Notes under the pieces: model-generated
What the model saw: the letters and a program-made list of their open reading frames with translations, nothing else
What the model was told of the DNA's origin: nothing
Database searches by the model: none
Translations under genes and position numbers: made by a program
Shown: in pieces, positions 10,175-57,311 of the stretch
How positions within the stretch are numbered: the first letter of the stretch is position 1
Layout of the letters: every line of letters starts with the position of its first letter
NCBI GenBank assembly: GCA_017744355.1
Contig: JAGIBK010000008.1
Coordinates: 17,461 to 81,460 of the forward strand
Direction of reading: 5' to 3'
DNA from: a bacterium
GTDB lineage: Bacteria; Cyanobacteriota; Sericytochromatia; S15B-MN24; UBA4093
Length of the DNA stretch: 64,000 bases

Positions 10175-10435
10175 ATGGAGGCGGCAAAGGCGATGAGAGC
10201 CCTGTTGATTGGCACAATGACTGCGCTGATCCGGGTGTACCAGCTCTTCTCGCGGATGACGCCCCGGCGTTGCCGGTACCACCCCACCTGTTCGCAGTAC
10301 GCGCTGGAGGCCATCACCGGGCACGGCCCGCTCAAAGGTCTCTTGCTCGCAACCTGGCGCCTCTTGCGGTGCCACCCCTGGACCCCAGGGGGTTACGACC
10401 CGGTGCCTCCGGCACCGCTTAGGAGACCTGAGTGA
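10175..10435 (+). CDS. yidD: membrane protein insertion efficiency factor YidD
   Basis: [30 protein letters not shown]...[15 protein letters not shown]. Start chosen at ATG 10175, after the rnpA stop. Confidence 0.85.
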
Positions 10436-11214: not shown

Positions 11215-11239
11215 GCAGCAGGAAAGAGAGGCTCCACCG

Positions 11240-11851: not shown

Positions 11852-11858
11852 GACCTCG

Positions 11859-13244
11859 ATGATCCTCTTCGACACCATCGCCGCCATCGCGACCCCGCCG
11901 GGCACCGGCGGGGTCGGCATCGTTCGGCTCAGCGGGCCCGAGAGCCTTTCGATCGCCCAGGCCCTCTTCCGCACTACGACGGACCGCCCGCTCGATCCTC
12001 CCCTGGAGGCACGCGAGGGCAAGTCCCTCCACGTGGGCCGGGTCGTGTCTCCCCAGACGGGCGAGACCCTCGACGAGATCGTCATGCTCGTCTTCCGGGC
12101 GCCGCGCTCCTACACCACCGAGGACGTGGTCGAGCTCCAGTGCCATGCGGGACCGGCCGTCATGCAGCGGATCCTGGCCGCGGTTCTCTCCCGGGGCGTG
12201 CGCCTCGCGGCGCCGGGCGAGTTCACCAAGAGGGCCTTCCTCGGCGGGCGGATCGATTTGACCCAGGCCGAGGCCATCGCGGACGTGTCGAGCGCGCGCA
12301 CCGAGCGCGCCCTGGCAACAGCCCTCGGCCAGCTCGAAGGACGCCTCGCCCAGGCCACCCGCTCCCTGAGGGATCCCATCAAGCTCCTGCTGGCCGAGCT
12401 GGAGGCCTCCATCGACTTCCCCGACGAGATCGATCCGCCGCCAGACGCCCGGATGCGCGAGACCCTCGGGGCCCTCATCGCCCAGGCCGAGCACCTGCTT
12501 GCGACCGCCGACGGCGGACGCCTCTTGCGCGAGGGGGCGTCGCTCGCCATCGTGGGGCGCCCCAACGTGGGCAAGTCGAGCCTGCTGAACGCGCTCCTGC
12601 AAGCCGAGCGGGCTATCGTGACCGACATCGCGGGCACCACCCGCGACGTGCTGGAGGCGGGGCTCGCCATCAAGGGGGTCCCCTTCCGCGTCCTGGACAC
12701 GGCGGGGATCCGGGACGAGGGGGCCGACGTGGTGGAGCGCCTCGGCATCGAACGCTCGAAGGAGGCCCTCGCGGAGGCCGACGTGCGGCTGGTGGTGCTG
12801 GATGCGGGCGCGGGGCTCACCCCCCACGACGAAGAGATCCTGGAGGCTTCCCGCTCGGCGGGGCCGACCGTGGTGACCTTGAACAAGATCGATCGTTACC
12901 CGGAGGTGGAGATCGCGCTTCCCGAGGGCGTTTTGGCCCTGCGGATCTCGGCGGCGACGGGGTCGGGGCTGGCGGATCTGGAACAGGCGATATATGATTT
13001 GACCTTGGGAGCGGCGTTATCGCCGATTGCCTCGGTCGCAATCAACGCGCGGCACCAGTCCGCGCTCGCGCGCGCCCGAGAGAGCCTGGAGAGGGCCCTC
13101 GAGAGCGTTTCGCGCCAGATGCCGGCCGACTTCGTCGCGATCGATCTGAGGGCTGCAATGGAAGCCCTGGGTGAGATCACCGGCGAGGACCTCAAAGAGG
13201 AGGTAATCGATCACATCTTCGCACGCTTTTGCGTGGGAAAATAA
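11859..13244 (+). CDS. mnmE: tRNA modification GTPase MnmE
   Basis: DTIAAIATPPGTGGVGIVRLSG, GRPNVGKSSLLNAL G1 motif, C-terminal FCVGK. Confidence 0.95.
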   Translation: MILFDTIAAIATPPGTGGVGIVRLSGPESLSIAQALFRTTTDRPLDPPLEAREGKSLHVGRVVSPQTGETLDEIVMLVFRAPRSYTTEDVVELQCHAGPAVMQRILAAVLSRGVRLAAPGEFTKRAFLGGRIDLTQAEAIADVSSARTERALATALGQLEGRLAQATRSLRDPIKLLLAELEASIDFPDEIDPPPDARMRETLGALIAQAEHLLATADGGRLLREGASLAIVGRPNVGKSSLLNALLQAERAIVTDIAGTTRDVLEAGLAIKGVPFRVLDTAGIRDEGADVVERLGIERSKEALAEADVRLVVLDAGAGLTPHDEEILEASRSAGPTVVTLNKIDRYPEVEIALPEGVLALRISAATGSGLADLEQAIYDLTLGAALSPIASVAINARHQSALARARESLERALESVSRQMPADFVAIDLRAAMEALGEITGEDLKEEVIDHIFARFCVGK

Positions 13245-13498
13245 ATAGCAAGCAGGGGTTATCCCTCGCTTACTTAATTGTGACGATAACGATAGGGTTT
13301 TACCCCGTTCATGGCGGAAGTTGCTGATAATTTCGGGTCTTTTACAAAACGTAAAAAGGCTCGCGGCATAAACTCGAAATCATTCTGTTATACTTTTTGA
13401 GGAATTCAGTCAAAAAACTCAAGGCTGATGCACCTTGTACCCAACTCAGCAACGTCGGCCCGATCTAGCAAGCGATCCGTCATCCGCTATCGGCATCC

Positions 13499-14263
13499 TT
13501 GAGCGACCGGAGGTTATGCGTGGAAAGTACTCGTAAGTGGTCGTTGACCCCGCAGGAACGTGAAAAGCTCGTCCACGAGTTTATCCCCCTGGTGAAGAAG
13601 ATTGCGCGCGGTCTCGCCCGCCGCAGCACGGATCCCGTCGAGGATCTGATCCAGGTCGGTTCCATCGGCCTCCTGGAGGCCATCGATCGCTACGAGCTGG
13701 GTCACAACACCGAGTTCAAGACCTACGCCGTCCACTACATCACCGGCCACATCCGCCACTACCTGCGCGATCGTCAGAACCTCCTGCGCGGCCCCCGCGC
13801 CCTCCAGGAGCTCTCGTACCGCCTGAGCGTCGTGACCGCGAACCTCTCGCACGAGCTCGGCCGCGAGCCGACCAACCAGGAGCTCGCCGACCAGCTCGAG
13901 ATCACCGTCCACCAGATCGACGAGGTCAAGCAGTACGACAACCGCGTCTCGGTCTACTGGCTCGATCAGGAAGGCCGCAGCGACGACGACGACACCCGTA
14001 CCCTGCTGGACACCCTGATGGATCCGCGCTCGCAGCGCGACGGTCAGGGGGATCTGGACGAGCGCCTGCTTCTCAAGGAGGCCATGGGCCGCCTTTCCAA
14101 GCAGCAGCAGGAGCTGCTCGAGATGCGCTACTTCCAGGACATGACCCAGGCCGAGGTCGCCCGCCGGCTCGGCGTCTCCCAGATGGAGATCTGCCGCCGC
14201 CTCAAGCGCGCCGTCAAGCAGCTGCAGAACATCCTCTGCCCCCCGACCGCCGCGCAGGCCTAG
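13499..14263 (+). CDS. group-3 (SigB/SigF/SigG-type) sigma-70 family factor
   Basis: DLIQVGSIGLLEAIDRYE (region 2), TYAVHYITGHIRHYLRD, and MTQAEVARRLGVSQMEICRRL (region 4 HTH). TTG start at 13499 is uncertain; GTG 13520 is an alternative. Confidence 0.85.
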   Translation: MSDRRLCVESTRKWSLTPQEREKLVHEFIPLVKKIARGLARRSTDPVEDLIQVGSIGLLEAIDRYELGHNTEFKTYAVHYITGHIRHYLRDRQNLLRGPRALQELSYRLSVVTANLSHELGREPTNQELADQLEITVHQIDEVKQYDNRVSVYWLDQEGRSDDDDTRTLLDTLMDPRSQRDGQGDLDERLLLKEAMGRLSKQQQELLEMRYFQDMTQAEVARRLGVSQMEICRRLKRAVKQLQNILCPPTAAQA

Positions 14264-14280
14264 CTGGTAACCAAAACGCC

Positions 14281-14312
14281 GAAGGCCCCCTCCGACGAGG
14301 GGGGCCTTTCCC
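14281..14312 (+). terminator. putative terminator after the sigma factor gene
   Basis: Imperfect stem GAAGGCCCCCTC / GAGGGGGGCCTTTC with a weak T tract. Confidence 0.4.
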
Positions 14313-14414
14313 ATGGGCTGGACTTCTTGGGTGAACGTTAGCGCAAGCTTAATGGTTGAATAACCGACTTCAGGCGGTGATCGGGCGATAACTCCGGTAG
14401 TAGGAGGAACGCCC

Positions 14415-15146
14415 ATGTCAGTTGCGAGGCTTGGATCTTACAACCAGATTCTCCAGTCGCTGCGCCAACTGCTGGCGGGTGCTCCGAGTCAGCAGCCTTC
14501 GAGCGCGCCGGCGGCTCCCAAGCCTCCTGTTTCGACCCTCGGGCGCGACGTCTTCATCTCCTCGCTCTCCGTGCCGGCCGCGCCCAAGGCGCCCCTCTCG
14601 GCCGATCCCAACACCTTCTTCTTCAGCCAGGTCCTCGATTCGCGCTGGAACCCCAACGCCACCGACGGCAACACCAACTGCGGTCCCGCGAGCCTCGCCA
14701 TGGCCCTCAAGGCCCTGGGCCTCAAGCCGCCCGGCCTGATCGACGCCAAGAACCCCGAGGCCTGGATCGACCGGACCCGCATGGCGATGGAAGGGGACAT
14801 GGACGACTTCAAGTTGACGTCGGACGACGACGTGCTGCGCGGGGCCGTCGCGAGCGGCGCCAAGGCCGAGAAGGTCTACGGCCTGGCAGGAGTCGAGGCA
14901 GCGATCGCCCAGGGCAAGCCCGTGGTGCTCGCCGGCAACCCGATCGCCTACGAAGGACGCTTCACCGATAGCCAGTACGCCAAGTTCGACGGCGGTCACT
15001 TCATCCTGGTGACGGGCATCCAGGGGGACAAGGTCAGCATCAACGATCCCCAGTCCCGCGTCGGCAGCCTCACCATCTCGCGCGCCGAGCTCGCCCAGTA
15101 CATGGGTTTCCAGGGCTGGAACGTGGGGGTTGCGGTCTCGAAGTAG
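14415..15146 (+). CDS. papain-like cysteine peptidase, C39-like family
   Basis: GNTNCGPASLAMALKALG catalytic Cys motif and DGGHFILVTG His motif. Long Pro/Ala/Ser-rich N-terminus with no obvious Sec signal. RBS GTAGGAGGA. Confidence 0.7.
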   Translation: MSVARLGSYNQILQSLRQLLAGAPSQQPSSAPAAPKPPVSTLGRDVFISSLSVPAAPKAPLSADPNTFFFSQVLDSRWNPNATDGNTNCGPASLAMALKALGLKPPGLIDAKNPEAWIDRTRMAMEGDMDDFKLTSDDDVLRGAVASGAKAEKVYGLAGVEAAIAQGKPVVLAGNPIAYEGRFTDSQYAKFDGGHFILVTGIQGDKVSINDPQSRVGSLTISRAELAQYMGFQGWNVGVAVSK

Positions 15147-15155
15147 GGGCTCGCT

Positions 15156-16019
15156 TTAGAGCCCGCTGCGGCTCTTGATGGCTTCGCGGTCGAAGGCGTA
15201 CTTGGTCCGGCGTCGCCACTCGCTTGCGATCGACCATTGCTGGAGGGGGGCGGTCTTCATCAGGACTCGCAAGCGGATGCTGTTCTCTTCGAACGCCTGA
15301 ATTCCCGCGATCTCCGGGAGCGCGAGCACGTCGTTCGGGCGTTCTTCCCAGAGCTTGCGCCCTTCCTCCATCATCAAGCTCAGCGCATGATCCACGTCGG
15401 CGTCGTAGGCGACCCCGAGTTCGAGGACGGCACGGGCCCACTCCTTGGAGCGGTTCGAGACGATCTTGATGCTGCCGTTGGGGATGGTGATGAGCTCGCC
15501 GGCGGTGTTGCGCAGCTGGGTGATGCGCAGGTTCATGCGCTCGACCAGGCCGCTCTTGCCGTCGATGTCCACCACGTCGCCCACCCCGTACTGGTCCTCG
15601 AACAGGATGAAGAAGCCCGAGATCACGTCCTTGACGAGGCTCTGGGCGCCGAAACCGACCGCGAGGCCGACGACCCCGGCGCTCGCCAGGATCGGTGTGA
15701 TGTTGATGCCGACGGCCGCGAGCACCGAGAGGGTGGTCGCGAAGAGGACCACGGCCCTGAGGGTGCTGCGCAGGATGGTGGTCAGCGTCAGGCTGCGCTG
15801 GGCGCGGCGCGGGCTCTGATCGGCGCGCGAGGAATCCTGGAGGGCGCCCTGAATTCGGTCGATCAGGGCGGTGCCGAGGCGTAGCGCCACGAAGGCGAGC
15901 CCGATGGTGACGAGGATGCCGATGCCGCGCGTGGTGGCCCAGGTGAGGGCGGCCTCGTCGAGGCGATCGATGGCTCGGGGCAGGGTAGCGAGGGTGGAGG
16001 GTGAGATCGTTCCTAGCAT
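15156..16019 (-). CDS. mechanosensitive ion channel, MscS family
   Basis: ASAGVVGLAVGFGAQSLVKDVISGFFILFEDQYGVGDVVDI. ATG 16019 chosen; GTG 16043 is the longest alternative. Confidence 0.85.
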   Translation of the reverse strand: MLGTISPSTLATLPRAIDRLDEAALTWATTRGIGILVTIGLAFVALRLGTALIDRIQGALQDSSRADQSPRRAQRSLTLTTILRSTLRAVVLFATTLSVLAAVGINITPILASAGVVGLAVGFGAQSLVKDVISGFFILFEDQYGVGDVVDIDGKSGLVERMNLRITQLRNTAGELITIPNGSIKIVSNRSKEWARAVLELGVAYDADVDHALSLMMEEGRKLWEERPNDVLALPEIAGIQAFEENSIRLRVLMKTAPLQQWSIASEWRRRTKYAFDREAIKSRSGL

Positions 16020-16072
16020 GACCTCTTTGTACCCGGAGTCCACTCGTTGGACGCGCCGGGTTCGCAGGAGGG

Positions 16073-16609
16073 CTAGAACGAGAGCGAGAGGCGGCCGCCG
16101 ATCTCGGTCAGGGTGCTCGCGTAGGGCGTGCCGGGAGGCTGGTTGAGGCCGTAGACGGGGCCTTGGGCCACGTGGAGGTCCAATTGGGCCAGCCCCAGGT
16201 CGAGGGCGACGCCCGCCTGCGGCATGTAGCCGTAGGGATTGCCCGTGACGTAGCTCGGCTGCTGGAAGGGGAAGGCGTAGTGGCCGACGATCCCCGCGTA
16301 GGGGGTGAGGGGGCCCAGGGGCAGCTCGAAGTTCGCGCTCGCTTGCCCGACGCCGTAAGTGTAGGTCTCGCCCCGGCCGTCCTTGAGGTAGGCGCCGCCC
16401 GCCTCGAAGTTCAGCCTCAAGAAGCGCGTGGGGCCTCCGAACCAGATGAGCGGTACGAAGGCGCCGCGCGCTTCGAGGGTGTCGTTTCCCGCCTTGAGGG
16501 CGAGCGTGCGGTAGCCGATGGGCAGGGTGTACTGCAGCTCGGCCTGGGCGGGCGCGGCAAGCGCGCTCACCAGGGCGATCGCTGCGGCTACCGCGGCGGG
16601 ACGCGACAT
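16073..16609 (-). CDS. small outer-membrane beta-barrel-like protein
   Basis: Signal peptide ending APAQA, alternating Gly/aromatic strands, C-terminal ...LSLSF. Confidence 0.6.
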   Translation of the reverse strand: MSRPAAVAAAIALVSALAAPAQAELQYTLPIGYRTLALKAGNDTLEARGAFVPLIWFGGPTRFLRLNFEAGGAYLKDGRGETYTYGVGQASANFELPLGPLTPYAGIVGHYAFPFQQPSYVTGNPYGYMPQAGVALDLGLAQLDLHVAQGPVYGLNQPPGTPYASTLTEIGGRLSLSF

Positions 16610-16614
16610 GGCTA

Positions 16615-16836
16615 TTAGAACCGCTCGAGGTGGTAGACGACGACGGTGGGCTCGTTGGGCGTCTCGGTGACGTCCTTCTTGATGATGCGGTACTTGCCGG
16701 CGGGCTTGGTCGTCATGTCCAGGTCTTCCAGGTTGACGAGGTTGCCGACCTTGCCGTCGAAGTCGAGCTCGAGCTCGTACTTGCCCTCATCCCCCTTGAA
16801 CATGATGATGGCGCGGGTGTCCTTGAGCTGAGGCAT
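16615..16836 (-). CDS. hypothetical 73-aa protein
   Basis: Good G/C3 codon bias, AGGA upstream, and a stop 5 nt before the downstream OMP gene start. No recognisable motif. Confidence 0.5.
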   Translation of the reverse strand: MPQLKDTRAIIMFKGDEGKYELELDFDGKVGNLVNLEDLDMTTKPAGKYRIIKKDVTETPNEPTVVVYHLERF

Positions 16837-16994
16837 GAAGTCCGTCCTGTATGAGTGGTAGGGCGCTAACGGCCTCTATCATAGCAAAGGGGCGCGATCC
16901 CGGCGAGATCGGGTGACTGGACTCACGGATCGGCTTGCTTCACCGGGCTAAGGTGGCCTCGACGCCCTTCTTCATGCACCTGCGAGGATCCTTC

Positions 16995-37706: not shown

Positions 37707-38268
37707 TTGGCAGAAGAAGAACTCAAGGAGGCGACTGTTCCCGAGTCCGCCGCCGACGAGAAGGACCAGCGCCTCGCGGAGCTGGAAGGCCAGTACAAGC
37801 GCCTGGCGGCGGATTTCGAGAACTACCGCCGGCGCCAGACCCAGGAGCGCGAAGAGCTGGTCAAGTTCGCCGCCTCCCGCGTCTTCGAGAACCTGCTGCC
37901 GGTCGTCGACAACCTCGAGCGCGCGATCGCAAGCTCCCGGAAGGCTACCGACGTCCAGCAGGTGCTCACGGGAGTCGAGCTGATTCAGCGCCAGATGATG
38001 GACTTCCTCACCAAGTCGGGGGTCGTGCCCATGGAAGCCCAGGGCACGCCCTTCGACCCCAACCTGCACGAGGCGATCGCCCAGATCGAGACGAGCGAGG
38101 CTCCGGACCAGTCGGTGCTCGCCGAGGTCCTGCGGGGCTACTACCTCAACGGGAAGGTCCTGCGCCACGCGATGGTGCAGGTCGCCAACAACCCCAACGC
38201 CACACTCAACACCGAACCAAAGACCGAGATGGCGGCCAACGCCGCCGACTCGCATAAGGAGGACAACC

Positions 38269-38276
<8 letters not shown>
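37707..38276 (+). CDS. grpE: nucleotide exchange factor GrpE
   Basis: TTG start. [13 protein letters not shown]...[11 protein letters not shown]...FDPNLHEA. Confidence 0.95.
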
Positions 38277-40167
<1,891 letters not shown>

Positions 40168-40180
40168 TCCATCCATCCCC

Positions 40181-40209
40181 ACGAGGGGCCAGATCGTCTG
40201 GCCCCTCGT
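40181..40209 (+). terminator. intercistronic stem-loop between dnaK and dnaJ (attenuator or mRNA stabiliser)
   Basis: 13-bp perfect stem ACGAGGGGCCAGA / TCTGGCCCCTCGT. No T run. Confidence 0.45.
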
Positions 40210-40227
40210 TAGTCCCAAGTTGAGGCC

Positions 40228-45112: not shown

Positions 45113-46183
45113 ATGAAGAAGCAAACGACCTTCGCGGCCCTCCTCACCTTCGCGCTGCTCGCCGGCTGCACCGCCTCCCTCGCGCCGATCTCGGATCGCG
45201 CCGCCGCCCCGCAGGCGCCTGCCTCTCAGCGACCCGCGACGAGCAACGAAGGCGAGCTGCGCATCGGCATCCGCTGGCCTGATCGCAACGTGCAGGCGAT
45301 CCCCCTGAGCGCCAACTCTGCCACCGTCTGGCTCTACGACTCGGCCGGGCGCCTCATGACTCAAGCCAGCGTCCAGCGTCCCACCGAGGGGAATCTCTCC
45401 TCCCAGGTCTTCTTCCGGGTCAAGGCGACCATGGGGGTGCGCGTCGTCGCCAAGCTGTACGAGCAGACGACGCCCAGCGCCAACGACGTCCCAGTCGCCA
45501 TGGGCACGGGCAACGTGGACATCTACGCCAATAACGTCAACTTCGTCGCCATCACCATGGACCCGCTCATCGAGCCCACCCTCGCGGTGCTCACCCCCTC
45601 TTACGGCGGGGTGGGCAAGGAGATCGTCATCTCGGGAGCCTTCCTCGGCGAGAGCCAGGATTGGCCCGTCACCGTCAAGTTCACCGGGATCCCCGCGACC
45701 TCGGTGACCCGCGTCAGCGACGAGGAGATCCGGGCCACCGTGCCTGCGGGCGCCGTCTCGGGCGACGTGGAGGTGGCGGTGGACGGCATCCGCAAGACCC
45801 TCCCCTTCGAGGTGCTCGTTGATCTGGCCTTCGAGAATCTGAATGGCCAGCAGCAGGCCTACCGGATCGTGCCGCTCACCTGCATCGGGACCTTCACCAA
45901 CGGCAGCAGGCGCCAGGTGGATGCCCTGACCTGGAGCTCCTCGAATCATGGGGTCGCCACGGTGGATCAGAACGGCCTCTTGCGCCCCGTCGCGCCGGGG
46001 ACGGCGAAAATCACCGCCGCCTCGGGCGGTGTGAACAAAGAGGGCACGGTCACGGTGAGCACCACCGGTGCCGTCGTGTTCGTGGCCGTCAAGGTGCCCC
46101 AATCCGGCATGGGCACAGTGGGTGTCCCCATCAACCTTCCTTCGGCCGCACCCGGTAACCTGCCCGTCATCTCGGACCCCTAA
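45113..46183 (+). CDS. lipoprotein with IPT/TIG-like and Big_2 domains
   Basis: Lipobox ALLAGC. LTPSYGGVGKEIVISGAFLG...VTRVSDEEIRATVPAGAVSGDVEV is IPT-like. LTWSSSNHGVATVDQNGLLRPVAPGTAKITAAS is Big_2. Confidence 0.7.
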   Translation: MKKQTTFAALLTFALLAGCTASLAPISDRAAAPQAPASQRPATSNEGELRIGIRWPDRNVQAIPLSANSATVWLYDSAGRLMTQASVQRPTEGNLSSQVFFRVKATMGVRVVAKLYEQTTPSANDVPVAMGTGNVDIYANNVNFVAITMDPLIEPTLAVLTPSYGGVGKEIVISGAFLGESQDWPVTVKFTGIPATSVTRVSDEEIRATVPAGAVSGDVEVAVDGIRKTLPFEVLVDLAFENLNGQQQAYRIVPLTCIGTFTNGSRRQVDALTWSSSNHGVATVDQNGLLRPVAPGTAKITAASGGVNKEGTVTVSTTGAVVFVAVKVPQSGMGTVGVPINLPSAAPGNLPVISDP

Positions 46184-46268
46184 CTCTTCGTCTCCCTGCC
46201 CCCTGGCGGGGCGGGGTCGGGGGTGGGGGGATCTCATCAAGTTCCTTATTTCAGGGAGAACGTTCGGA

Positions 46269-48137
46269 ATGAATCGGAAGCAATCGGTACGCCTGGCAGC
46301 GGGCACGCTCTTGGCCCTCACCCTCACCGGCACGCTCGCCTGCGCGCCGCGCGCGGGCCTCGCGCCGAACACTCCGGACGCGCCCGGCGTGACGGCTGCC
46401 GGCAGCCTCGCGGTGCCCGTGACCCTTCCGAAGCTTCAGGACCGGGGCGTCCAGTACCAGTACAGCAGCGGGTACATCAACGCCCTCGAGGTCCTGCTGG
46501 TCGATAGCCTCGGCCGTCACCAGGCCTACGTGGTCTGCCGGAACCCCGAGAAGGGGGCCGCGGGCGGCTCGACCAACGTCCTCTTCCAGAACGTCGCCCC
46601 CGGCACCGCCTGGATCACCGTGCGCACCACCTACCGCCAGCTCATCGGCGAGAACGAGCGCCTCGTGCCCGTCGAGGGCAAGCCCAGTACCTTCGATCTG
46701 GACGGCGGCCCCACCCGGGTGACGGCTGTCAGCGGCACGCTCAGTGGGCCTGATGCGACCAGCGTCCTGGTCTTCAAAAGCACGGATCTTGGCGGCACCG
46801 CGAACGCCCCCGCGGTCCTCTCCTTCTACGAGAACAACGACGGAGGATCCGAGCTCAACGACGCCTCTGACGTTCACGCGGGGTACGGAGTCGGAGCGGC
46901 GAGCGGCAGCGTCGTTGCCGGCAACGTGACGAGCCTGCCGGTGCAGGTCTCCCAACCTCCGACCTTCGATTCGGCCCTGCTCAACACCACGCGTCACACG
47001 GATGCGGGAACGAACATCACCCTCCCAGTGAAGGATGTTCAAGCTGGCGACCGCGTCGTGGTGGTCCGGACCTCCAACCCCTCGGCGACCAGCGACTTCC
47101 TCGACCTGACCAAGGTCGCAAACTATGACTTCTATCCTCTGACCATCAATAGCAGCACGAGCGTGACCTTCACCCCCACTCGCTCAACGGGCGGGATGGT
47201 CAACTACTACCTCTCGCGCGGCGAGATGGTGAGCAAGATTGGCGCCAGCAACGGGAGCGTCTCGCTGGCCAAGGTCCATGTTCATCCGAAGGTCGTGAGC
47301 TCTGCGACGGTGCGCATCGGGTCTGATGATGGGACCTCGCGCCTGCCGCGCCGAACGGGCGAGACCGATACCGTCTACATTACCTTGCGTGATCAGTACG
47401 GCAACCTCGTCACGGGTGCCGATTTCGGCACCCGCCTGATGGACGGCTTCGTGTGGAGGCCCCTGATGGAGCCTGTCCAGACCCAACTGCTTCCGAATCC
47501 TGATGCCTCGACGCATACTCCTGTGGCCTTCATTCCTGGTTCGACCATCGGGCGTCTCACGACGCCCACAGACGCCAACAACGACGGTATTTGGGAATCT
47601 ACCTTTACCCAGGGGGCGGTCACGCCTACGGCTGGCGGGACTGCGGCTTCATTCACGCTCTTCAACAACACCCGGATCCGAGCGCTCTCGTATCTCCATG
47701 ACACCTCAAACTTGGCGGCGACAACGGCATTTGCCCTTGGAGTGACGGCTGATCCTGTGACTGTCGGGGCTCTCTGGCTCACGCTGTACCGGGGGGCCAA
47801 TGTGGCGGGTGGCACCTTCGTCGCGTCTCGTAGCTACCAGCCGGATCTCAGCGCGCCGGACGATGCTGCGACCTTCAGCATCTCACCCACTAGCAATACG
47901 ACTTACCCTGGATCCATCGCCCCTGAGGGATTGCCCTTGATCATGCGGATGGGACGGAACCTGGGAGCCAACATCACGACAGCGGACAATGACACGCGGA
48001 TCGCGGTCACGGTTGGTGCTCGGGCAGAGCTCGATATCGATCGCCCTGTCTTCCGCATCTATCATCAGAATGCGGACGGCTTCTTGACCCTGAAGAACAC
48101 GATTAACGGTAGTGTGAGCTACTCCTGGAAGCGATAG
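46269..48137 (+). CDS. large lipoprotein, Ig-like repeats, unknown function
   Basis: ATG 46269 after AGGGAG. Lipobox-like LTGTLAC. TVYITLRDQYGNLVTG resembles a Big_1 strand. The part of ORF 46068.. upstream of this ATG is ignored. Confidence 0.65.
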   Translation: MNRKQSVRLAAGTLLALTLTGTLACAPRAGLAPNTPDAPGVTAAGSLAVPVTLPKLQDRGVQYQYSSGYINALEVLLVDSLGRHQAYVVCRNPEKGAAGGSTNVLFQNVAPGTAWITVRTTYRQLIGENERLVPVEGKPSTFDLDGGPTRVTAVSGTLSGPDATSVLVFKSTDLGGTANAPAVLSFYENNDGGSELNDASDVHAGYGVGAASGSVVAGNVTSLPVQVSQPPTFDSALLNTTRHTDAGTNITLPVKDVQAGDRVVVVRTSNPSATSDFLDLTKVANYDFYPLTINSSTSVTFTPTRSTGGMVNYYLSRGEMVSKIGASNGSVSLAKVHVHPKVVSSATVRIGSDDGTSRLPRRTGETDTVYITLRDQYGNLVTGADFGTRLMDGFVWRPLMEPVQTQLLPNPDASTHTPVAFIPGSTIGRLTTPTDANNDGIWESTFTQGAVTPTAGGTAASFTLFNNTRIRALSYLHDTSNLAATTAFALGVTADPVTVGALWLTLYRGANVAGGTFVASRSYQPDLSAPDDAATFSISPTSNTTYPGSIAPEGLPLIMRMGRNLGANITTADNDTRIAVTVGARAELDIDRPVFRIYHQNADGFLTLKNTINGSVSYSWKR

Positions 48138-48228: not shown

Positions 48229-49076
48229 TCAGGCGATGGGCCGGTCCTCCAAACCGACCTGAGCAGCGAAGCGTTCGGGTGTTTCGCCGCCGAGTGAACT
48301 GTGGGGTCGAACCCGGTTGTAGTCGAGCCGCCAAAGCTCGATGCGATGCCGGGCCTCGAAGAGGCTGGTGAACAGGTTTTCGTTGAGACACTCGTCCCGG
48401 AACTTCCCGTTGAAGCTCTCGATGTAAGCATTCTCCACGGGCTTACCAGGCCGGATAAAGTGGAGCGTCACTCCTCGAGCGTCTGCCCAGGCGTCCAGTG
48501 TCCGTCCTGCGAACTCCGGGCCGTTGTCCACGGTGATGACCTTGGGCAGTCCGCGCATCTCGGCCAAGCACTCTAGAACGCGTACGACGCGAAGCCCGGG
48601 CAACGAAGTGTCGACTTCGATGGCCAAGCATTCGCGGGTGTAGTCGTCTACGATGTTCAACGTGCGGAAACGCTGCCCGGACCAGAGCGCGTCGAGCGTG
48701 AAGTCCATGCTCCAGCGTTCATTGGCCCGCTGCGGGGCGTCCGGGATGACCCGCGCGCCAGCCACTAGCTTCTTCCTGCGCTTTCGCCTGACGGCAAGCC
48801 CTTCCTCTCGGTAGATCCTGAGCACGCGCTTGTGGTTGAGGATGAAGCCCTCGCGCTTGAGCAGAGTGTGAAGGCGCCGATAGCCGAAGCGTGGGCGTTG
48901 CGCCACAAACTCCTTGAGCTTTTCACGCACGGCGCCATCGTCGCGCTTTTTTGCGCGCTGATAGAACACCGAGCGGGCCAACCCAACCAGGCCGCAAGCC
49001 TTGCTTTTGCTGAGACGGTGGGCGCGTGCTATATGCTTGACCATCTCTCGCTTGGTTTGCGCCCTACCACTTTTTT
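48229..49076 (-). CDS. IS3 transposase OrfB (rve/DDE integrase core), expressed as an OrfAB fusion by a -1 frameshift
   Basis: [30 protein letters not shown] (D, D, E), and C-terminal [11 protein letters not shown]. Confidence 0.85.
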
Positions 49077-49330
49077 CCAAGCACGTCCTTAAGGGCCACA
49101 ATATCCAGGGCTTGGTCCGCAACGATCCGCTTGAGATGGCGGTTTTCCTCTTCGAGGGCTCGCAACCGCTGTGCCTCACCGATTTCCATACCGCCGTATT
49201 TCGCCTTCCAACGGTAGAAGGTCTGCTCGGTAATGCCCTGCTGGCGGCAGATGTCGGCTGTCTTGATGCCACGTTCGACCTCTTTGAGGAGGCCAATGAT
49301 TTGCTCTTCTGTGAAACGACTTTTCCGCAT
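49064..49330 (-). CDS. IS3 transposase OrfA (HTH)
   Basis: [45 protein letters not shown]. Leucine-zipper region. Ends ...GKKW. Confidence 0.85.
49070..49076 (-). other. programmed -1 ribosomal frameshift heptamer A AAA AAG
   Basis: GGAAAAAAGTGGTAG at the end of orfA. The orfB frame is open across this site. Confidence 0.7.
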
Positions 49331-49561
49331 GGGGTGTCCTCCTCGGATCACGTACCCGTGCAGACTCACTTTTCAAGTTGTCCATTCTCGTGGGAGCAGG
49401 TCAAGGCGACAACAAGCTGAACATGGCCCCTTGCTGAAGATCGTACCCTTTCATCCCACCCTCACGAGCAGATCCGCTGCCGTTTCTGCTTCATGCCACC
49501 GCGTAGCAAGCGTCCAGGCCATGGTCTGAGTTTTTCAGCACCTGTTAAGGAGACACGCATG

Positions 49562-49620
49562 GGGGGCGGGCTGGTTATTAGTAAAATCAGCCTGCCCCCT
49601 TATTCATTTATTTTTTCGAG
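49562..49620 (+). terminator. hairpin plus T-rich tract at the high-GC to low-GC boundary (terminator-like on the plus strand)
   Basis: 12-bp stem GGGGGCGGGCTG / CAGCCTGCCCCC (one G-T pair), 14-nt loop, then TTATTCATTTATTTTTTCG. No plus-strand gene lies upstream. Confidence 0.4.
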
Positions 49621-51744
49621 CTATCTGGGAACTATTTTGAATAAATGGTTCTTTGTAGTGAAATATGGGGTATCTGTTTTATCAACTGCAACTGCTAATG
49701 TGCTATGTAGAGTAACGGGACTACTTCCCCAATTCTGGTCATAAATGCCATTTCCTCTTCCTGCTATCGTGCTTACGAATCCATCCGGATAAATCTTTCT
49801 AATAGTTGCATCCCAATCCGTAGTTATTGCATTGTCTGCCACATACAGGTTTCCAATGCTGTCAGCTGCTATTGAAACCGGCTTAGTAAAACTTGCCTGG
49901 AAACCATTAGCTTTTCCTACTAGCCCAGTCCCAGCTACAGTTGATACTTCACCAGAAGGTGTGATGACTCGAATGTATAATCCTTCTTCTGCAATGAATA
50001 TATTTCCATTCTTGTCAATAGTAAGTGATGTGGGTCTGTCAAATTTAGCAATTTCTTTTTTGCCGTCTAGATGGCCCCTGGTTCCGTCTCCTGCAAATGT
50101 TGAAACGGCTAAATTAGGCGCGATTTTTCTGATTCTGTTGTTATCTGTATCGGCAACATAGATGTTTCCACTATTGTCAATTGCAATTCCTTTTGGGTTA
50201 TTGAATCTCGCACTTGTTCCATTTCCATCTAAGAATCCACCTTGATACGACGAAGGTCCATAGTTGCCCCAGGTCAATGGATTGCCTCCGCCAGCAATTG
50301 TGGTAACTGTCCCATCAGGGAATACTTTCCGAATTCGCTGGTTGTTTGAATCAGCAACATATATATTTTCGGAATTATCAAGTGCGATAGCATATGGCAT
50401 GCTGTAAAGCGCAGAAGATCCAACGCCATCCTTGTATCCCCAATATGAAGAACCAGTAGTATAGATATTTTGAGATAGATTTTGACTCCATCTTTTAACA
50501 TACTGATGGAAGTCCATATCTGCAGAAGAATGGTTAACCTCTGATGTATATATTTCGCCACTTTCGGAAATTGTTAATCCAGTTGGACTCCAGAAAATTG
50601 ACGTTGCATTATTTGGGGTTTTTATGTCATTTAAGTATTTTCCAACGTATTCAACGGTTGGTTGGCTTGCCGTATTGTGACTATAGTCGACATTTATTTT
50701 GCTAATGCTGTTACTAAGATAGTTTGCAATCAAGATGTTTCCATCTCTGCCGCAAGTTATGCTTACTGGCTCTGAACCCGTCGGGTAGGTTCCTATGATC
50801 AATCCATTTCGGGATAGTCTTGTGACATTGGCATTGTATTTGTTCAACACCCATGCACAGCCACTGCGGTCAATAGTGATTCCAAATGACGAATTTCCTG
50901 CTTTATATGTGTATATTTTTCCGTCAGGTGATATTTTTGTAACTGATGAATACCTCTCGGCTCCAATTTTGCTATATGCTGAAACCCATGCGTTTCCATA
51001 ATCATCGACGATAATAGCATTTGCTATTGGCGTTGAGTAGCTGTCTCTACTTTGAGACAGGATTGATTCGAGAGGGTATTTGGTTACGGTTTGTTCATTA
51101 TTTGTTAGTTTATATATCCCTGAATTTGATGTGCTGCTATATAGCCAAACATTGTTACTTTTATCGATATATACCCTGTTCAGGCTTGGGTTTGGTTTTG
51201 TTATTGTGCTTAATAGCTGCTTTAAATTTGAATATTTATATAGATAATTGTTCCCAGATTCGCTAATAAAATAAATCATGCCATTTGATTGTCGAATGTC
51301 GAAGCTAGAGCCGACGGCTGGTAGCGTAATACCTGAGCCGTTCGCAAGACCTGGGGCGCCTAAATTTCTAAGTACGTTGGAGTCTTGCTCTAGCGCCCAA
51401 ATATTTCCGCTGGGATCAAACTTGAAGTAACCATTAGTAACGCCTCGTGCAACCTTAGTTAAATACGGATAACGTCCATCAGGGTTTAGCCTTATAATGG
51501 ACATTCCTATATCAGTTTTGCATGAGATATATATATAGCCATTATCGCTTCTTTGTGTAATATATTGCGGATATTCGCTAGTATTATAAGTCTCTGTATT
51601 GTCTCCTGTAGTGTCTCCTATGGCTAAGGTTGCATATTGCTTGTTATTTTCTGGCTTGCTAGTTTGAATAGTTTCAATGGTATTTGCTTGATAACAAGAT
51701 GTTGTAATAATGGTAATAATTGACATTAATAATAATTTATTCAT
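49621..51744 (-). CDS. low-GC NHL-repeat / double beta-propeller lipoprotein (foreign composition)
   Basis: Lipobox IITTSC. C-terminal NHL repeats (PYAIALDNSENIYVADSNNQRIRKV, PKGIAIDNSGNIYVADTDNNRIRKI, PTSLTIDKNGNIFIAEE, PVSIAADSIGNLYVADN). The N-terminal half has D..GN.W-type propeller repeats. A/T-rich codons, unlike all neighbouring genes. Confidence 0.8.
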   Translation of the reverse strand: MNKLLLMSIITIITTSCYQANTIETIQTSKPENNKQYATLAIGDTTGDNTETYNTSEYPQYITQRSDNGYIYISCKTDIGMSIIRLNPDGRYPYLTKVARGVTNGYFKFDPSGNIWALEQDSNVLRNLGAPGLANGSGITLPAVGSSFDIRQSNGMIYFISESGNNYLYKYSNLKQLLSTITKPNPSLNRVYIDKSNNVWLYSSTSNSGIYKLTNNEQTVTKYPLESILSQSRDSYSTPIANAIIVDDYGNAWVSAYSKIGAERYSSVTKISPDGKIYTYKAGNSSFGITIDRSGCAWVLNKYNANVTRLSRNGLIIGTYPTGSEPVSITCGRDGNILIANYLSNSISKINVDYSHNTASQPTVEYVGKYLNDIKTPNNATSIFWSPTGLTISESGEIYTSEVNHSSADMDFHQYVKRWSQNLSQNIYTTGSSYWGYKDGVGSSALYSMPYAIALDNSENIYVADSNNQRIRKVFPDGTVTTIAGGGNPLTWGNYGPSSYQGGFLDGNGTSARFNNPKGIAIDNSGNIYVADTDNNRIRKIAPNLAVSTFAGDGTRGHLDGKKEIAKFDRPTSLTIDKNGNIFIAEEGLYIRVITPSGEVSTVAGTGLVGKANGFQASFTKPVSIAADSIGNLYVADNAITTDWDATIRKIYPDGFVSTIAGRGNGIYDQNWGSSPVTLHSTLAVAVDKTDTPYFTTKNHLFKIVPR

Positions 51745-52224
51745 TTTTTCCTCTCTGTTGATTTAGTTGCAATTTCCAATACAATTATATTGTACTATGC
51801 CATCCTAAAAAACAAAAACCATAATCATAATATTTCAAGAGTTACGCAGGGTAGGTTGAACGCAGCCACCTTAGCGAGGTCAGGTGGCGGGGAGCATGAA
51901 AGTGACTTGCCGGCGAGAGAGCGGACGCCCCTCTGCAGGATGATCTTGCGCTTCCTGCCCACCCCTGCCGCGATCTGGGAGTAGTCACTTTGGCGCCGAA
52001 GGCACCATGCGATCGCCCCGAAGGCTCGATGAACCAAGGATGGCCGGCCCATTGCCTTGCGATCGCCTGGATCGAAGGCGCCTTGGTGGATGACCACCTC
52101 TATCAGCGCGTTCGCTCCCCGCATAAGTCGCTTTCCGCAATAATGGACTGATCGTCCGCTTGTCCTGTGGGTATAACCTCTCATGACGCTGGCTTGACCG
52201 TTTAGCCCGCCCAGGGAGGTTCCC

Positions 52225-53994
52225 ATGAAGCTCATGCGCGAAGGAATGGAGCGGCTGCAGTCGCTCGTGCGCCAAAAGGCCGAGAACCTGACCACCAAGG
52301 TCGCCCGTGAGGGGGCCGAGAAGGTGGGCAAGGAAGGCGCCGAGAAAGTAGCCAAGGGCTTCGCCGACGAGGTCCTCTCGGTCTCGAACACCGCGCGCAA
52401 GCTCGCCCAGGTCAAGGCCGATCCCGAGATCGCCAACCTGGCCTTCAAGGTCGCCGCCGAGCAGGGTGGCCTCAAGGGCGGACACCTTTCCAAGCAGGTC
52501 ATGGAGGATGCGGCCGGCCAGCGCTGGATGTTCAAGGCCGTGCCCAAGGGCGAAGAGTACCGGGCGCTCGGGGATAAGGCCGGTGGCGACATCCTGCGTG
52601 CGGTCGGCATCTCCACTCCGCAGGTCCACCTGACGACCCAGGTGATGGATGGTCGTCCCCAGTTCGGAACCATCCAGAAGCTGGTCGACCACTCGGGCCA
52701 GAAGCTGCCGAGTGATGCCACCAAGCTCTCGCGCCAGCAGCTCGACGAGCTGACCGAGTCGCACGTGGGCCGCTGGCTCATCTCGGACCACGACGGCAAG
52801 GTCGAGAACTTCCTGGTCCGCAAGGGCGGCGGGGTCGAGACCATCGATCTCGGCCAGATGTACCGCTTCTTCCCCGAGGACTCCCTCGATCGCCTTTACC
52901 AGCCGAACGCCAAGAAGCCCATCTTCAACGAGATGTGGGACGGCTACGTCTCGGGCAAGATCGACCTGAACTTCCAGAAGGGCCTGGACCAGGTCGCCAA
53001 GGTCGAGGCCCTGGCGGATGACGAGTTCGTGAAGCTGCTTCGCCCCTACGCCGAGACGCGCTACGCTCAGGCGGGGCCGATCCCCACCATGAAGACCGTC
53101 GACGAGTTCATGCAGTCGGCCCTGAATCGCAAGCAGAACCTCCGCGACGACATGCTCGGCTTCTACGATTCGCTCGCCAAGGAGCGCGGCCTCTCGGGCG
53201 TGGAAGAAGCCCTCGGCTCCTACGCCTCCCAGCACGCCGACGACATCCGTCGCGTAGGCCTCCAGCCTGTCCAGAAGCTCCATCCTCGGGTCGCGGAAGC
53301 CTTCGCCACGAGCCGTGCCAACGCCGCCCGCTACAAGGAGGAGACCATCCAGGTCCTCACCGAGAAGTTCGGGAACCGCACGGTGGCCGAGCAGAAGTAC
53401 AAGGCGATCTACGAGAAGGTCCGCAAGGACATGTTCATCGCCGCTAACTACCCCAACAGCGCCCTGACGACCGCCATCAAGGAAGGCCGCATTCGCTCGC
53501 TCTACGACTTCCCGATCAAGGAGCAGATCGAGAGCAAGGGCGTCGGCTACGTCGCCGGGCGCCACTTCGCGGACCTGCGTCTCGGCCTTCACGGCGACAA
53601 CCCCCTCTACGTCACGGTGGGCGGCAACAAGAAGTACGCCAAGGACATCGCCAAGTACGGCGACACCATGGTCCGCTACAAGGAGGCCGAGCTCGCGGGC
53701 AAGGTCCTCTATTCGGATGGCAACCACAACTTCTATGCCAAGAACATGCTGAACGCCAAGTCGAAGTTCGAGAGCCAGCGCTTCACCTACTTCGACGTGC
53801 CGCACCTGACGGTCAACCGCATCGTGAAGGAGGGCCTGGATCCCAAGGAGGCCAGCCACCTGATCGAGGGCATCGTCTACGGAGGGATCGATCCACGCAC
53901 CGCGGCGGAGGCCATCAAGCCCCTGCGCGCGGAGGCCTCGAAGGAGGCGCTCCTCGAAATGGCGAAGGACGCCAACATCTCCATCTTGCCGTGA
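52225..53994 (+). CDS. PI3/PI4-kinase-like (atypical kinase fold) protein with an unknown ~300-aa C-terminal region
   Basis: RBS GGGAGG. QRWMFKAVPKGEE (Lys, nt 52534), WLISDHDGKVENFLV (D-x-H...N catalytic-loop-like, nt 52786-52809), VETIDLGQ (IDxG, nt 52843-52854). Function is inferred from motifs only. Confidence 0.6.
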   Translation: MKLMREGMERLQSLVRQKAENLTTKVAREGAEKVGKEGAEKVAKGFADEVLSVSNTARKLAQVKADPEIANLAFKVAAEQGGLKGGHLSKQVMEDAAGQRWMFKAVPKGEEYRALGDKAGGDILRAVGISTPQVHLTTQVMDGRPQFGTIQKLVDHSGQKLPSDATKLSRQQLDELTESHVGRWLISDHDGKVENFLVRKGGGVETIDLGQMYRFFPEDSLDRLYQPNAKKPIFNEMWDGYVSGKIDLNFQKGLDQVAKVEALADDEFVKLLRPYAETRYAQAGPIPTMKTVDEFMQSALNRKQNLRDDMLGFYDSLAKERGLSGVEEALGSYASQHADDIRRVGLQPVQKLHPRVAEAFATSRANAARYKEETIQVLTEKFGNRTVAEQKYKAIYEKVRKDMFIAANYPNSALTTAIKEGRIRSLYDFPIKEQIESKGVGYVAGRHFADLRLGLHGDNPLYVTVGGNKKYAKDIAKYGDTMVRYKEAELAGKVLYSDGNHNFYAKNMLNAKSKFESQRFTYFDVPHLTVNRIVKEGLDPKEASHLIEGIVYGGIDPRTAAEAIKPLRAEASKEALLEMAKDANISILP

Positions 53995-54052: not shown

Positions 54053-55901
<1,849 letters not shown>

Positions 55902-55918
<17 letters not shown>

Positions 55919-57311
55919 GGTATGGGTCGCCCCAGGCATTGTCAAACCACGCTTGCCTCTCGCGAATCGCCTTCACGACCTGCTGCGTCGCCGGACCGAT
56001 CGGAGCCTGGGCCCCTCGCCTCACTCCCACGATCCAGAGCACGTCGTTACCGGTGGCGAGTACGAGTTGGCGCTCCATGAGCGGACGTGCCACCCGCTGC
56101 TTGGAGAGAAACTGAGCGAGGGGACGCGAGGTCCCACGGCCCCAGGGGGTGAAGCGATCGGTGTCGGGTCGTGCGAGGCGCCATACCAGGTCGGTGGGCA
56201 GGCGATCAGCATCGAAGGCCTCTTCCGGGCCGAGGGACTGGGGGCTCTCGGCGGCCAGCTTCAAGCTGAGCAGGGCGCCCGCAAGCTCGATCGTTTCACC
56301 CGGGCGCGCCGGCACCGGGGCGGGCGCTTCGATCGCCCGGTACAGGAGCAGTAGCCCGTGTCGCGCCTCGGCGCGCAGCCCGTCGCCCACGTCTACCCCT
56401 TCGCCCGCCTCGCGGATCCGCTCCAGGCGCAGGGCGCTCAGGCCGCGGTGGGTGCCCTGCACGTGGGCGTAGGCCTGGGCCAGGATGCGGCGCTGGAGCG
56501 CCGGGTGCAGGGCCGTAAGGCCGGCTTCCTCCAGGCCGATCAGGCCGGGGGCCTGGTGCCGCAAGAGCGGCCGGATCGCTTCGCGGGCCTGATGTCGTAA
56601 ATAGTCGTCCTCGTCGGCGAGCACGGCGAGGTTCGCCCCCAGGGTGCGGTGAATGGAGGGGTTGAGCGTCCGCAGCGCCGGGGTTACCTCGTGACGCAGC
56701 CGGTTGCGAGGGATGGCGGCGTCACGGTTGCTCTCGTCCTCGAACCACGCGAGCCCGTGGCTTTCGAGATAGGCCTCGATGGTGGCGCGCGCGACGCCCA
56801 GCAAGGGGCGTACGATCCGGGGCCCCTCGTGCTGTGGGCGTGTCGCCGGAATGCCCAGCAAGCCCGGCAGGGCAGAGCCCTTGGTCAGGCGCATGAGGAC
56901 GGTTTCGAGCTGGTCGTCGGCGTGATGCCCCAGCGCCAAGTGGGTCGCGTTGCTCGTCTCGGCCAGCGCATTGAGCGCGGCGTAGCGGGCGTCGCGGGCG
57001 GCCTCTTCGGGGCTCTGACCCGGGCTTGGACGGGCTTCGACTCGCGCGATCCGGAATTGGAGGCCCCAGCGGGCCATGAGGTGGGTCAGCTGCTCGGCCT
57101 CGGCGTCCGCCGCCGCGCGCAGGCCGTGGTGGATGTAGGCGGCCTCGATGTGCCAGCCTCGCTCCGGCGCCAGGCTCCACAGGGCGTGGGTGAGGGCGAG
57201 CGAGTCGGCTCCGCCCGAGCAGCCGACGAGGATGCGCGCGGCGGGCGGGAAGAAGCCGTGGCGGGCGCTCATGGAGAGGATACTGGAAAGAAGCGACTCG
57301 GGGGGCGTCAT
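55902..57311 (-). CDS. tilS: tRNA(Ile)-lysidine synthase
   Basis: PP-loop ILVGCSGGADSLAL. AHHADDQLETVLMRL. Its 3' end overlaps the ftsH start by 17 nt. Confidence 0.9.

Follow-up and report, generated by a model that had tools for sequence, protein, structure and literature searches.

What would a 589-residue protein that matches nothing by sequence in Pfam, NCBIfam, PADLOC or the PDB (in Pfam not even at E ≤ 10) do in the chromosome of a member of Sericytochromatia, the uncultured sister lineage of Cyanobacteria? The question is raised by an open reading frame (ORF) at 52225..53994 on the forward strand of a 64,000-nucleotide stretch of contig JAGIBK010000008.1 (GenBank assembly GCA_017744355.1). 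This whole stretch is referred to below as the window, and coordinates are counted from its first letter. A first-pass annotation made from the sequence alone described the product as a protein of native composition with PI3/PI4-kinase-like catalytic motifs and an unassignable C-terminal half. The evidence assembled here leans towards a modular, leader-targeted, two-enzyme (toxin-like) effector drawn from the polyvalent-protein repertoire of phages and plasmids, in which a leader of ~65 residues precedes a predicted kinase-like module and a candidate ADP-ribosyltransferase (ART).

The ORF is real. It opens with an ATG, 5 nt ahead of which stands the Shine-Dalgarno sequence GGGAGG (52214..52219, forward strand; read straight off the sequence), and this start is supported by homologues that begin at equivalent residues. 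A chance frame is discounted because 12 homologues at 43-92% identity keep the motifs of the protein and 1,467 more distant proteins match its kinase-like module. The convergent ftsH gene (54053..55945, reverse strand) begins 58 nt beyond the stop codon (53992..53994, forward strand), so the gene is monocistronic and has no same-strand gene downstream. No same-strand partner gene was found in the window and no hydrophobic signal peptide in the protein, both as first annotated, and a terminator scan between the gene and ftsH returned nothing.

Residues ~66-334 (52420..53226, forward strand) are predicted, from AlphaFold modelling, Foldseek comparison and conservation, to form a protein-kinase-like (PKL) fold with a complete set of catalytic residues. 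The AlphaFold model, built on an alignment of close homologues, scores 80-97 in predicted local distance difference test (pLDDT) across this region. Its Foldseek comparison with the PDB returns kinase-like folds only, at modest E values of 7e-5 to 1e-3. The best template modelling (TM) scores are to PI4KIIalpha (4hne, 0.42), CtkA (3akk, 0.46 when normalised to the target; root-mean-square deviation 8.0) and HipT (8ezr, 0.43), with further matches to HipT (7ab3) and to RIO and eukaryotic-type kinases. The first-pass annotation had proposed this very comparison, and had named the lack of a kinase-fold match, placement in a well-characterised non-kinase family or loss of K104, D188 and N195 among homologues as grounds for abandoning its idea; all PDB matches proved to be kinases, and none of the three observations overturned the kinase assignment.

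The predicted catalytic residues follow one another in a familiar order. A Gly-rich loop (GGLKGGHLSK90) precedes K104 in WMFK104AV (52534-52536, forward strand), the putative β3 Lys, and Q151, which lies on a modelled strand formed by residues 144-152. The predicted catalytic loop, H189-D190-G-K192-V-E-N195 (D190 at 52792-52794, N195 at 52807-52809, forward strand), leads to D208 in the motif IDLG (52846-52848, forward strand), predicted to bind Mg, and then to a helical C-lobe that contains P227-N228, D265 and R302-K303. Counted from D190 as position 0, a Lys or His stands at +2 and N195 at +5, and D208 follows 13 residues past N195. A Lys, then Asp (0), Lys or His (+2) and Asn (+5), then a further Asp is the classical kinase arrangement, as in HRDxKxxN and DFG.

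Conservation was assessed at two depths. A word-indexed search of 5.8 billion proteins recovered 8 relatives and a profile search 12, which give shallow close-family alignments of 9-11 sequences; K104, D188, D190, K192, N195 and D208 are invariant in nine close homologues. When 1.84 billion cluster representatives (50% clustering) were searched exhaustively with HMMER, the 1,467 matches at E ≤ 1e-3 were obtained, of which 1,056 reach E ≤ 1e-10 and nearly all fall on profile positions ~65-320. The module is thus not rare but belongs to a large family unannotated in Pfam. Across 193 domain copies from 148 proteins, drawn from the best 150 of these matches, D208 is kept without exception (193/193), followed by D190 (192/193), K104 (186/193), H189 (173/193) and Q151 (167/193). 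Position 195 is Asn in 142 copies and Gln in 41 (183/193 together), and the C-lobe pairs P227 (177/193) and N228 (175/193), and R302 (182/193) and K303 (180/193), are similarly retained. Position 188, singled out in the first-pass annotation, is Asp in only 22 copies and Asn in 119, although it is invariant among the nine close homologues. The predicted catalytic Asp is therefore D190 (192/193) rather than D188 (22/193). The motifs first quoted are all present, the model is kinase-like, and K104, N195 and D208 are conserved as had been expected; it is the choice of the Asp that has to be corrected.

The label attached to those motifs, PI3/PI4-kinase-like, also holds only in part. PI4KIIalpha is among the structures with the best TM scores, but the nearest relatives appear to be HipA-like kinases rather than PI3/PI4 kinases proper, a placement that follows from the alignment of the HipA loop and from sub-threshold Pfam matches that are mainly to HipA_C. 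In hhalign, the family profile places RWLISDHDGKVENF on QWLIGATDGHAKNF of Escherichia coli HipA, equating D190 with D309 and N195 with N314, with a probability of 58.6 and an E value of 9.5e-5 over only 27 columns around the catalytic loop; five unrelated controls score 0.1-0.3. Sub-threshold matches to HipA_C (PF07804; 12-25 bits against a cut-off of 30.5) occur in 8 of 25 scanned relatives, and fall on the N-terminal region with G-x-x-x-K or on the catalytic loop. A single relative (P0020) gives a sub-threshold match to PI3_PI4_kinase (PF00454; 21.5 bits against a cut-off of 27.1, E 2.5e-4), which spans the catalytic and activation loops. The 589-residue protein itself stays below the Pfam thresholds of both families.

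Likeness to the HipA family (E. coli HipA, HipT, Helicobacter pylori CtkA) extends to the fold (TM 0.43-0.46), to the G-x-x-x-K loop at the start of the domain and to the loop W-L-I-x-x-x-D-G-[HK]-x-x-N-F, which aligns to HipA D309/N314. Unlike HipA, the protein is fused to a leader and a putative ART; it lacks the N-terminal domain of HipA, and the window holds no HipB or HipS antitoxin next to it. With the PI3/PI4 kinases it shares a bilobal fold in the model and the order Lys, D-x-x-x-x-N, D-x-G, but its loop reads DHDGKxxN, not GDRHxxN, and it lacks their helical and C2 accessory domains. By model and alignment, the module is an atypical HipA/PI-kinase-like kinase that lies outside both Pfam families by threshold.

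The C-terminal half (the C-module, residues 335-589; 53227..53991, forward strand) was left unplaced in the first-pass annotation. By sequence it is still unplaced in Pfam, NCBIfam, PADLOC and the PDB, but its predicted structure resembles ART folds: a helical part (residues ~354-402) is followed by a six-stranded ART-like core. The AlphaFold model reaches a pLDDT of 68.8 and a predicted TM score (pTM) of 0.61. Foldseek against the PDB yields 20 matches at E ≤ 10, of which the better-scoring ones are all ARTs. Best among them is SopF, a Salmonella type III secretion system effector, in complex with NAD and ARF1 (7dn9; E 0.014, probability 1.0, TM 0.53/0.47), in a match that spans 288 columns and includes the helical N-terminal part; others are DarT (TM 0.39-0.47), CteC and pertussis toxin. 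Predicted viral structures (BFVD) that match the model, with E values from 4e-7 to 2.5e-4, are those of a minor capsid protein of MuF type, of a 932-aa ParB-N protein from Bacillus phage CP-51 (query-normalised TM 0.61), of a DUF3626 protein from a Nodularia cyanophage and of large multi-domain proteins from Caudovirales. DUF3626 is the Pfam family of SopF (PMC6682159). Residues 335-589 are thus quite probably, on the strength of this model, a SopF/DUF3626-like ART, and from the fold we infer an NAD+-dependent ART activity.

Unlike a member of SopF/DUF3626, the C-module has no detectable sequence similarity to that family: neither DUF3626 nor any ART family of Pfam matches it, even at E ≤ 10, and sequence searches of phages and plasmids with it give nothing at E ≤ 0.01 and noise only at E ≤ 10. 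One sequence-based candidate, a likeness to aspartate carbamoyltransferase (profile against the PDB, E 0.26-0.6; NPLYVTVGGNKKY on NLHVAMVGDLKYG), was set aside for lack of significance and because the PDB and viral fold matches of the model do not include it. Only 11 sequences of the C-module are known, and 59 residues are invariant across them. These include the candidate active-site residues N408/Y409 on β1, Y462 in NPLYVTVGG on β2 (53608-53610, forward strand), S497 on β4 and E548 in EGIVYGG on β5 (53866-53868, forward strand), with strands assigned from the model and not by residue-level superposition. In SopF itself, the H-Y-E triad takes the variant form I-Y-E (PMC10333799). The predicted strand placement of N408, Y462 and E548 is compatible with an N-Y-E site, which would likewise be a triad without His.

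The kinase-like module also occurs far outside Sericytochromatia, and its company there bears on function. Most relatives in the wide search are 1,000-6,354 aa long and contain few or no Pfam domains. Since most of them lack any Pfam domain, they amount to a large block of unannotated sequence space. Two tandem kinase-like copies are present in 45 of the 148 large relatives (the P0013-P0158 set); one relative is a fusion of Phage_Mu_F with the kinase-like module (P0139), and the 6,354-aa protein of a Mycolicibacterium (P0126) is named ADP-ribosyltransferase by NCBI. By tblastn, the module is found in 12 mycobacteriophage records at 27-32% identity (E down to 2e-24). In McProf gp54 (1,185 aa), encoded between the portal and scaffold genes, a VG15 minor-capsid domain is followed by the kinase-like module and then by ADPrib_exo_Tox; in Onyinye gp16 (1,340 aa), ADPrib_exo_Tox again follows the kinase-like module. 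In 29 large actinobacterial plasmids (26 from Streptomyces), the module forms the C-terminal end of ~800-870-aa proteins, in neighbourhoods of transfer or establishment type that encode a replication-relaxation protein, a ParB-N protein, DUF4417, a peptidoglycan endopeptidase, an ADP-ribosylglycohydrolase, ImmA/IrrE and helicases. The module is thus part of a large phage- and plasmid-associated family. The initial guess of an effector or toxin, made from motifs alone, fits this wider family, which includes plasmid proteins as well as MuF fusions and virion proteins of phages.

Proteins of this kind have been described as polyvalent proteins, which combine several enzymes and are delivered together with the DNA of a phage or plasmid; of the domains in them that modify proteins, ARTs are the most frequent (Iyer et al. 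2017, PMC5512222). Among their domains is also a distinctive kinase clade, described as lacking a C-terminal subdomain and as occurring mainly in the Verrucomicrobia-Chlamydia group and Bacteroidetes, one mark of which is a conserved Gln in the N-lobe's final strand (PMC5512222). Q151 fits this mark, in a comparison with the published description of the clade; in the module, a conserved helical region (residues 230-320) follows D208, and H189 adjoins D190. The wider family occurs in multi-domain phage and conjugative proteins, whereas the 589-residue protein itself is chromosomal.

With polyvalent proteins such as McProf gp54 and Onyinye gp16 the 589-residue protein shares a homologous kinase-like module, the order of kinase-like module then putative C-terminal ART, and the bundling of unrelated enzymes in a single polypeptide. 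MuF polymorphic toxins (Jamet et al. 2017, PMC5576092) offer a further parallel in the MuF-kinase fusion already mentioned. The differences are that the protein bears a 65-aa leader in place of the MuF/VG15 capsid domain; that its candidate ART is of the SopF-like x-Y-E type, while those of the phage proteins are ADPrib_exo_Tox of the R-S-E type; and that it is small, chromosomal, of native composition and outside any prophage or transfer locus. That a kinase is followed by an ART from either of two unrelated families, SopF-like here and exoenzyme-type in phages, hints at cooperation between the two chemistries. A 1,567-aa relative (P0013), which ends in the kinase-like module and holds a PARP-like FYHG...G-x-G-[IV]-Y motif, may pair the kinase with a second type of ART; in the locus of a kinase-only relative (L003), a HEAT-repeat protein of 1,219 aa has an N-terminal part that resembles, by eye, the segment bearing this motif.

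The PI3/PI4-like features allow a different account, in which the protein would be a lipid or small-molecule kinase effector of true PI3/PI4 type acting on phosphoinositides or some other non-protein substrate in a eukaryotic cell, with the ART directed at a membrane target. PI4KIIalpha does have the highest query-normalised TM (0.27) among PDB matches of the kinase region, P0020 matches PI3_PI4_kinase across both the catalytic and activation loops, and SopF acts on a membrane V-ATPase and is activated by host ARF (PMC10333799). However, the PI4KIIalpha match (4hne_B, E 9.2e-4; TM 0.27 query- and 0.42 target-normalised) is no better than the HipA-like ones, and sub-threshold matches favour HipA_C over PI3_PI4_kinase by 8 to 1. 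The wider family resides in phages and plasmids of Actinobacteria, with bacterial targets, and nothing ties Sericytochromatia to eukaryotic hosts. Fold and sequence do not reveal the substrate class, and a lipid kinase is considered improbable.

The third component is the N-terminal leader (residues 1-65; 52225..52419, forward strand), which is predicted to be helical with a pLDDT below 50. The duplicated EGAEKV(G/A)K unit reported in the first-pass annotation is present as a tandem 8-aa duplication (residues 29-36 and 37-44; 52309-52356) that is lineage-specific; its two units are identical at 19 of 24 nt, and a tandem-repeat finder did not pick it up at the DNA level. What had been read as a charged, coiled-coil-like N-terminus is, however, a leader common to a whole family and carried over differing cargo. 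Its conserved elements are G-M/L-x-x-L near the N-terminus, a VSDDAA-like stretch and D-x-L-x-[LV]-S-x-x-A-R.

The first ~60 residues are common to four architectures: kinase plus ART (the 589-aa protein and P0001-P0005), kinase only (P0006, P0007, P0014, P0015, P0017 and P0020), ART only (P0009-P0012) and kinase with a different, HEAT-like C-terminus (P0008). The ART-only proteins, which consist of leader and C-module, are ~310 aa long and 63-67% identical; a more divergent copy of the C-module is found in P0019. A hidden Markov model (HMM) of the leader retrieves all members of the four architectures, scores the leader of the window protein at 66.0 bits (E 3e-19), and finds no other match in the window and none among the giant proteins. 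Two further ideas about the leader were dropped. Its presence as a general signal on neighbours of the kinase-only gene in L003 (a 368-aa protein and a 224-aa ParB-N-like protein), suggested by eye from D-x-L-K-L-S, was given up because the HMM gives only a partial match at E 0.02 for one and nothing for the other. An encapsulin-type cargo peptide was rejected, as the likeness is a loose one and the gene lists of the loci include no shell gene. The L003 neighbourhood (8708-16861) is itself a run of unannotated genes around the kinase-only P0006, the ParB-N-like gene among them.

The family is patchily distributed and its genomic settings differ from locus to locus. The window gene adjoins ftsH; its relatives lie by dnaE2/imuB (L001), among hypothetical genes (L003) or by the pyruvate dehydrogenase E1 gene (L005, L014 and L015). 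No synteny was detected between family loci, and even a 66%-identical orthologue in a Candidatus Sericytochromatia metagenome-assembled genome (MAG; L007) shares no neighbour with the window gene. L015 carries two of these genes in tandem, a kinase-plus-ART gene and then an ART-only paralogue with 87% identity to P0011 and 67% to the ART half of the gene before it. Against L005 and L014, where the flanks are 89% identical, the kinase-plus-ART gene is a ~1.9-kb insertion or deletion. This indel, the tandem paralogues and the variable settings are the behaviour of a shuffling cassette family.

Two other features of these loci are recorded. A 175-aa CMD (carboxymuconolactone decarboxylase/AhpD-like) gene lies ~10 nt past the ART-only gene in all four contigs of this locus type (including L015 3275-6630, L005 10001-11471 and L014 3887-5351), and the kinase-plus-ART gene just upstream of the ART-only/CMD pair is present or absent among genomes that are ~89% identical. 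In a MAG labelled as an Oscillatoriaceae cyanobacterium (L008 62-5566), fliG-, fliH- and fliI-like genes and a Cys-rich 166-aa ORF directly precede a 340-aa kinase-only member on the same strand. A link to flagellar type III export was considered on this basis and rejected, as no other locus is so arranged; the MAG may be mislabelled, since flagellar genes are unexpected in an oxygenic cyanobacterium.

A conserved N-terminal element ahead of interchangeable enzyme domains, here in four architectures, recalls polymorphic toxin systems, as do the tandem paralogues of L015 and presence or absence among close genomes. Unlike those systems, the leader family has no recognised trafficking domain (PAAR, LXG, MuF, RHS and the like). 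The window gene is followed not by an immunity gene but by the convergent ftsH, and the CMD gene past the ART-only copies has no shown immunity role.

Taken as a two-enzyme effector, the protein would work as follows. Its ~65-aa leader would be a family-specific targeting or trafficking element. In the HipA/PI-kinase-like kinase, K104 would bind ATP, D190 would act as the catalytic base, and N195 and D208 would bind Mg; the SopF/DUF3626-like ART would use NAD+ through an x-Y-E site that includes Y462 and E548. Kinase and ART alike would stem from polyvalent effectors packed in phage heads or carried on conjugative plasmids, in which the kinase-then-ART order presumably serves to modify proteins of the invaded cell. 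In the Sericytochromatia-type lineage, the capsid-targeting MuF/VG15 domain would have been replaced by the short leader, and the genes would then have become chromosomal and compositionally native and been shuffled into four architectures and tandem arrays. Directed by the leader, the protein would leave the cytoplasm or enter a delivery particle; its kinase and ART would then act, by phosphorylation and ADP-ribosylation, on targets in another cell, be it a competitor or a predator or host, or in an invading element. We infer the targeting role of the leader, the action outside or between cells and the substrates alike. The lack of an adjacent immunity gene suggests that the target is missing in the producer, or that activity is gated by a cofactor or by the leader.

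Several observations weigh against this interpretation. The ART assignment rests on one model of moderate confidence, the other four having scored 42-56, and has no sequence support, the C-module matching nothing relevant in Pfam (E ≤ 10) or in a profile search of the PDB. The leader matches no known signal and no Pfam family, and a search of the 5.8 billion proteins with the leader alone returned nothing, an uninformative outcome in that known members were missed too. No linked secretion system, particle genes or known trafficking domain occurs in the window or in any of the loci, fliGHI in L008 being the lone exception. The window also holds no adjacent immunity or antitoxin gene, an unusual situation for an antibacterial toxin and one that does not point to any class of target. 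Finally, the closest structural relatives, HipA/HipT and DarT, are intracellular toxins of toxin-antitoxin systems and not secreted proteins.

This last point leads to the most substantial competing explanation: an intracellular growth-arrest or abortive-infection toxin, held inactive by the leader or by an unlinked factor, that on phage infection or stress would phosphorylate and ADP-ribosylate the translation or DNA machinery of its own cell, in the manner of HipA/HipT and DarT. HipT, HipA-like CtkA and DarT are among the best-fitting structures, and the HipA catalytic loop aligns with that of the module. The gene also lies in a variable region beside an insertion sequence (IS)-type integrase and a foreign island, a common position for defence genes, and its relatives are present or absent between close genomes. 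However, no HipB, HipS or DarG-macrodomain antitoxin and no conserved neighbour occurs in the window or the loci; PADLOC gives no match, and toxin-antitoxin or defence annotation through PADLOC, PHROGs and NCBIfam yields nothing significant. The wider family sits in phage virion and plasmid proteins, that is, on the side of the attacker, and a leader shared by differing cargo is more typical of trafficking than of sensing. An intracellular toxin is accordingly regarded as unlikely, if less so than a lipid kinase.

The two-enzyme effector thus remains the favoured interpretation, and parts of it differ in novelty. The kinase fold and the polyvalent-protein context are of kinds already known. 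New here are a sequence family formed by the candidate SopF-like ART module, a leader-cargo family that is chromosomal and native in a Sericytochromatia-type lineage, and the compact kinase-plus-ART design. More speculatively, the ~60-aa leader might be a new targeting signal of Sericytochromatia-type bacteria, for secretion or for loading into a particle of phage origin, that serves a domesticated, chromosomal and shuffling arsenal of polyvalent enzyme domains, and the C-module a new SopF-like N-Y-E family of ARTs that acts with the HipA-like kinase on the same target; this bolder version is offered only tentatively.

The surroundings of the gene in the window combine conserved and variable elements. 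As first annotated, the gene lies between a low-GC island gene (49621..51744, reverse strand) and ftsH, and the native composition claimed for the 589-aa ORF is confirmed: its G+C content at third codon positions (GC3) is 0.908, close to that of ftsH (0.927), the MCP gene (0.909) and dnaK (0.953). This native GC3 implies long residence in the lineage. The adjoining island gene, which encodes a 707-aa NHL-repeat β-propeller protein, is clearly foreign, with GC 0.39 and GC3 0.32 (0.321) in a genome of 0.65-0.70 GC. Next to it stands the IS-type integrase (48229..49296, reverse strand; domains rve, rve_3 and HTH_21), and the two together (48229-51744) have the look of foreign DNA inserted very recently, immediately upstream of the 589-aa gene. 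Housekeeping genes lie upstream (dnaK, dnaJ, cysS and an SpoU methylase gene) and downstream (ftsH and tilS, with the MCP gene and an HD-domain gene). The block is broken by the NHL gene, the integrase, a Big_2 Ig-like domain protein (45113..46183, forward strand), which lies between the housekeeping block and the IS element, and a 689-aa ORF without a Pfam match (46068..48137, forward strand; GC3 lower, at 0.78). The latter two may belong to one variable region with the IS element and the NHL gene.

Such surroundings could suggest that the gene is a remnant, decaying or without function, of a polyvalent protein from a phage or plasmid that stayed in the chromosome when the mobile element was lost. 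The adjoining integrase and foreign low-GC gene, the missing operon partner and the patchy distribution of the family are in keeping with this, but other features weigh against it. Its 589 codons are intact behind a strong Shine-Dalgarno sequence, its codon composition is fully native, the predicted catalytic residues are all invariant in homologues at 43-92% identity, as are the 59 C-module positions in theirs, and several intact paralogues exist. A remnant is the least probable of the explanations, and very improbable in itself.

Two coding artefacts of the window were also observed. A frame antisense to dnaK (38206-40218, reverse strand) matches the Pfam family NAD-GH at E 1.6e-176; NAD-GH is a known spurious family built on such dnaK antisense frames. 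The high GC content produces many long artefactual ORFs, for example 51985..53859 (reverse strand) opposite the 589-aa gene.

The analysis assigns, as far as prediction allows, a fold, active site and biological setting to a Pfam-unannotated kinase-like family of at least 1,467 representatives at 50% clustering, many members of which are giant proteins of phages, plasmids and Actinobacteria. It points to a recurrent design in injected effectors, a kinase and then an ADP-ribosyltransferase, in which at least two unrelated ART families would take part, and it nominates the C-module as a SopF-like ART candidate without detectable sequence similarity to known ARTs. To our knowledge, the interactions of Sericytochromatia with other organisms are essentially unknown. 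The 589-aa protein would be a compact and tractable model for cooperation between kinase and ART, and its leader, carried on swappable cargo, may provide a handle for finding a new delivery or targeting signal.

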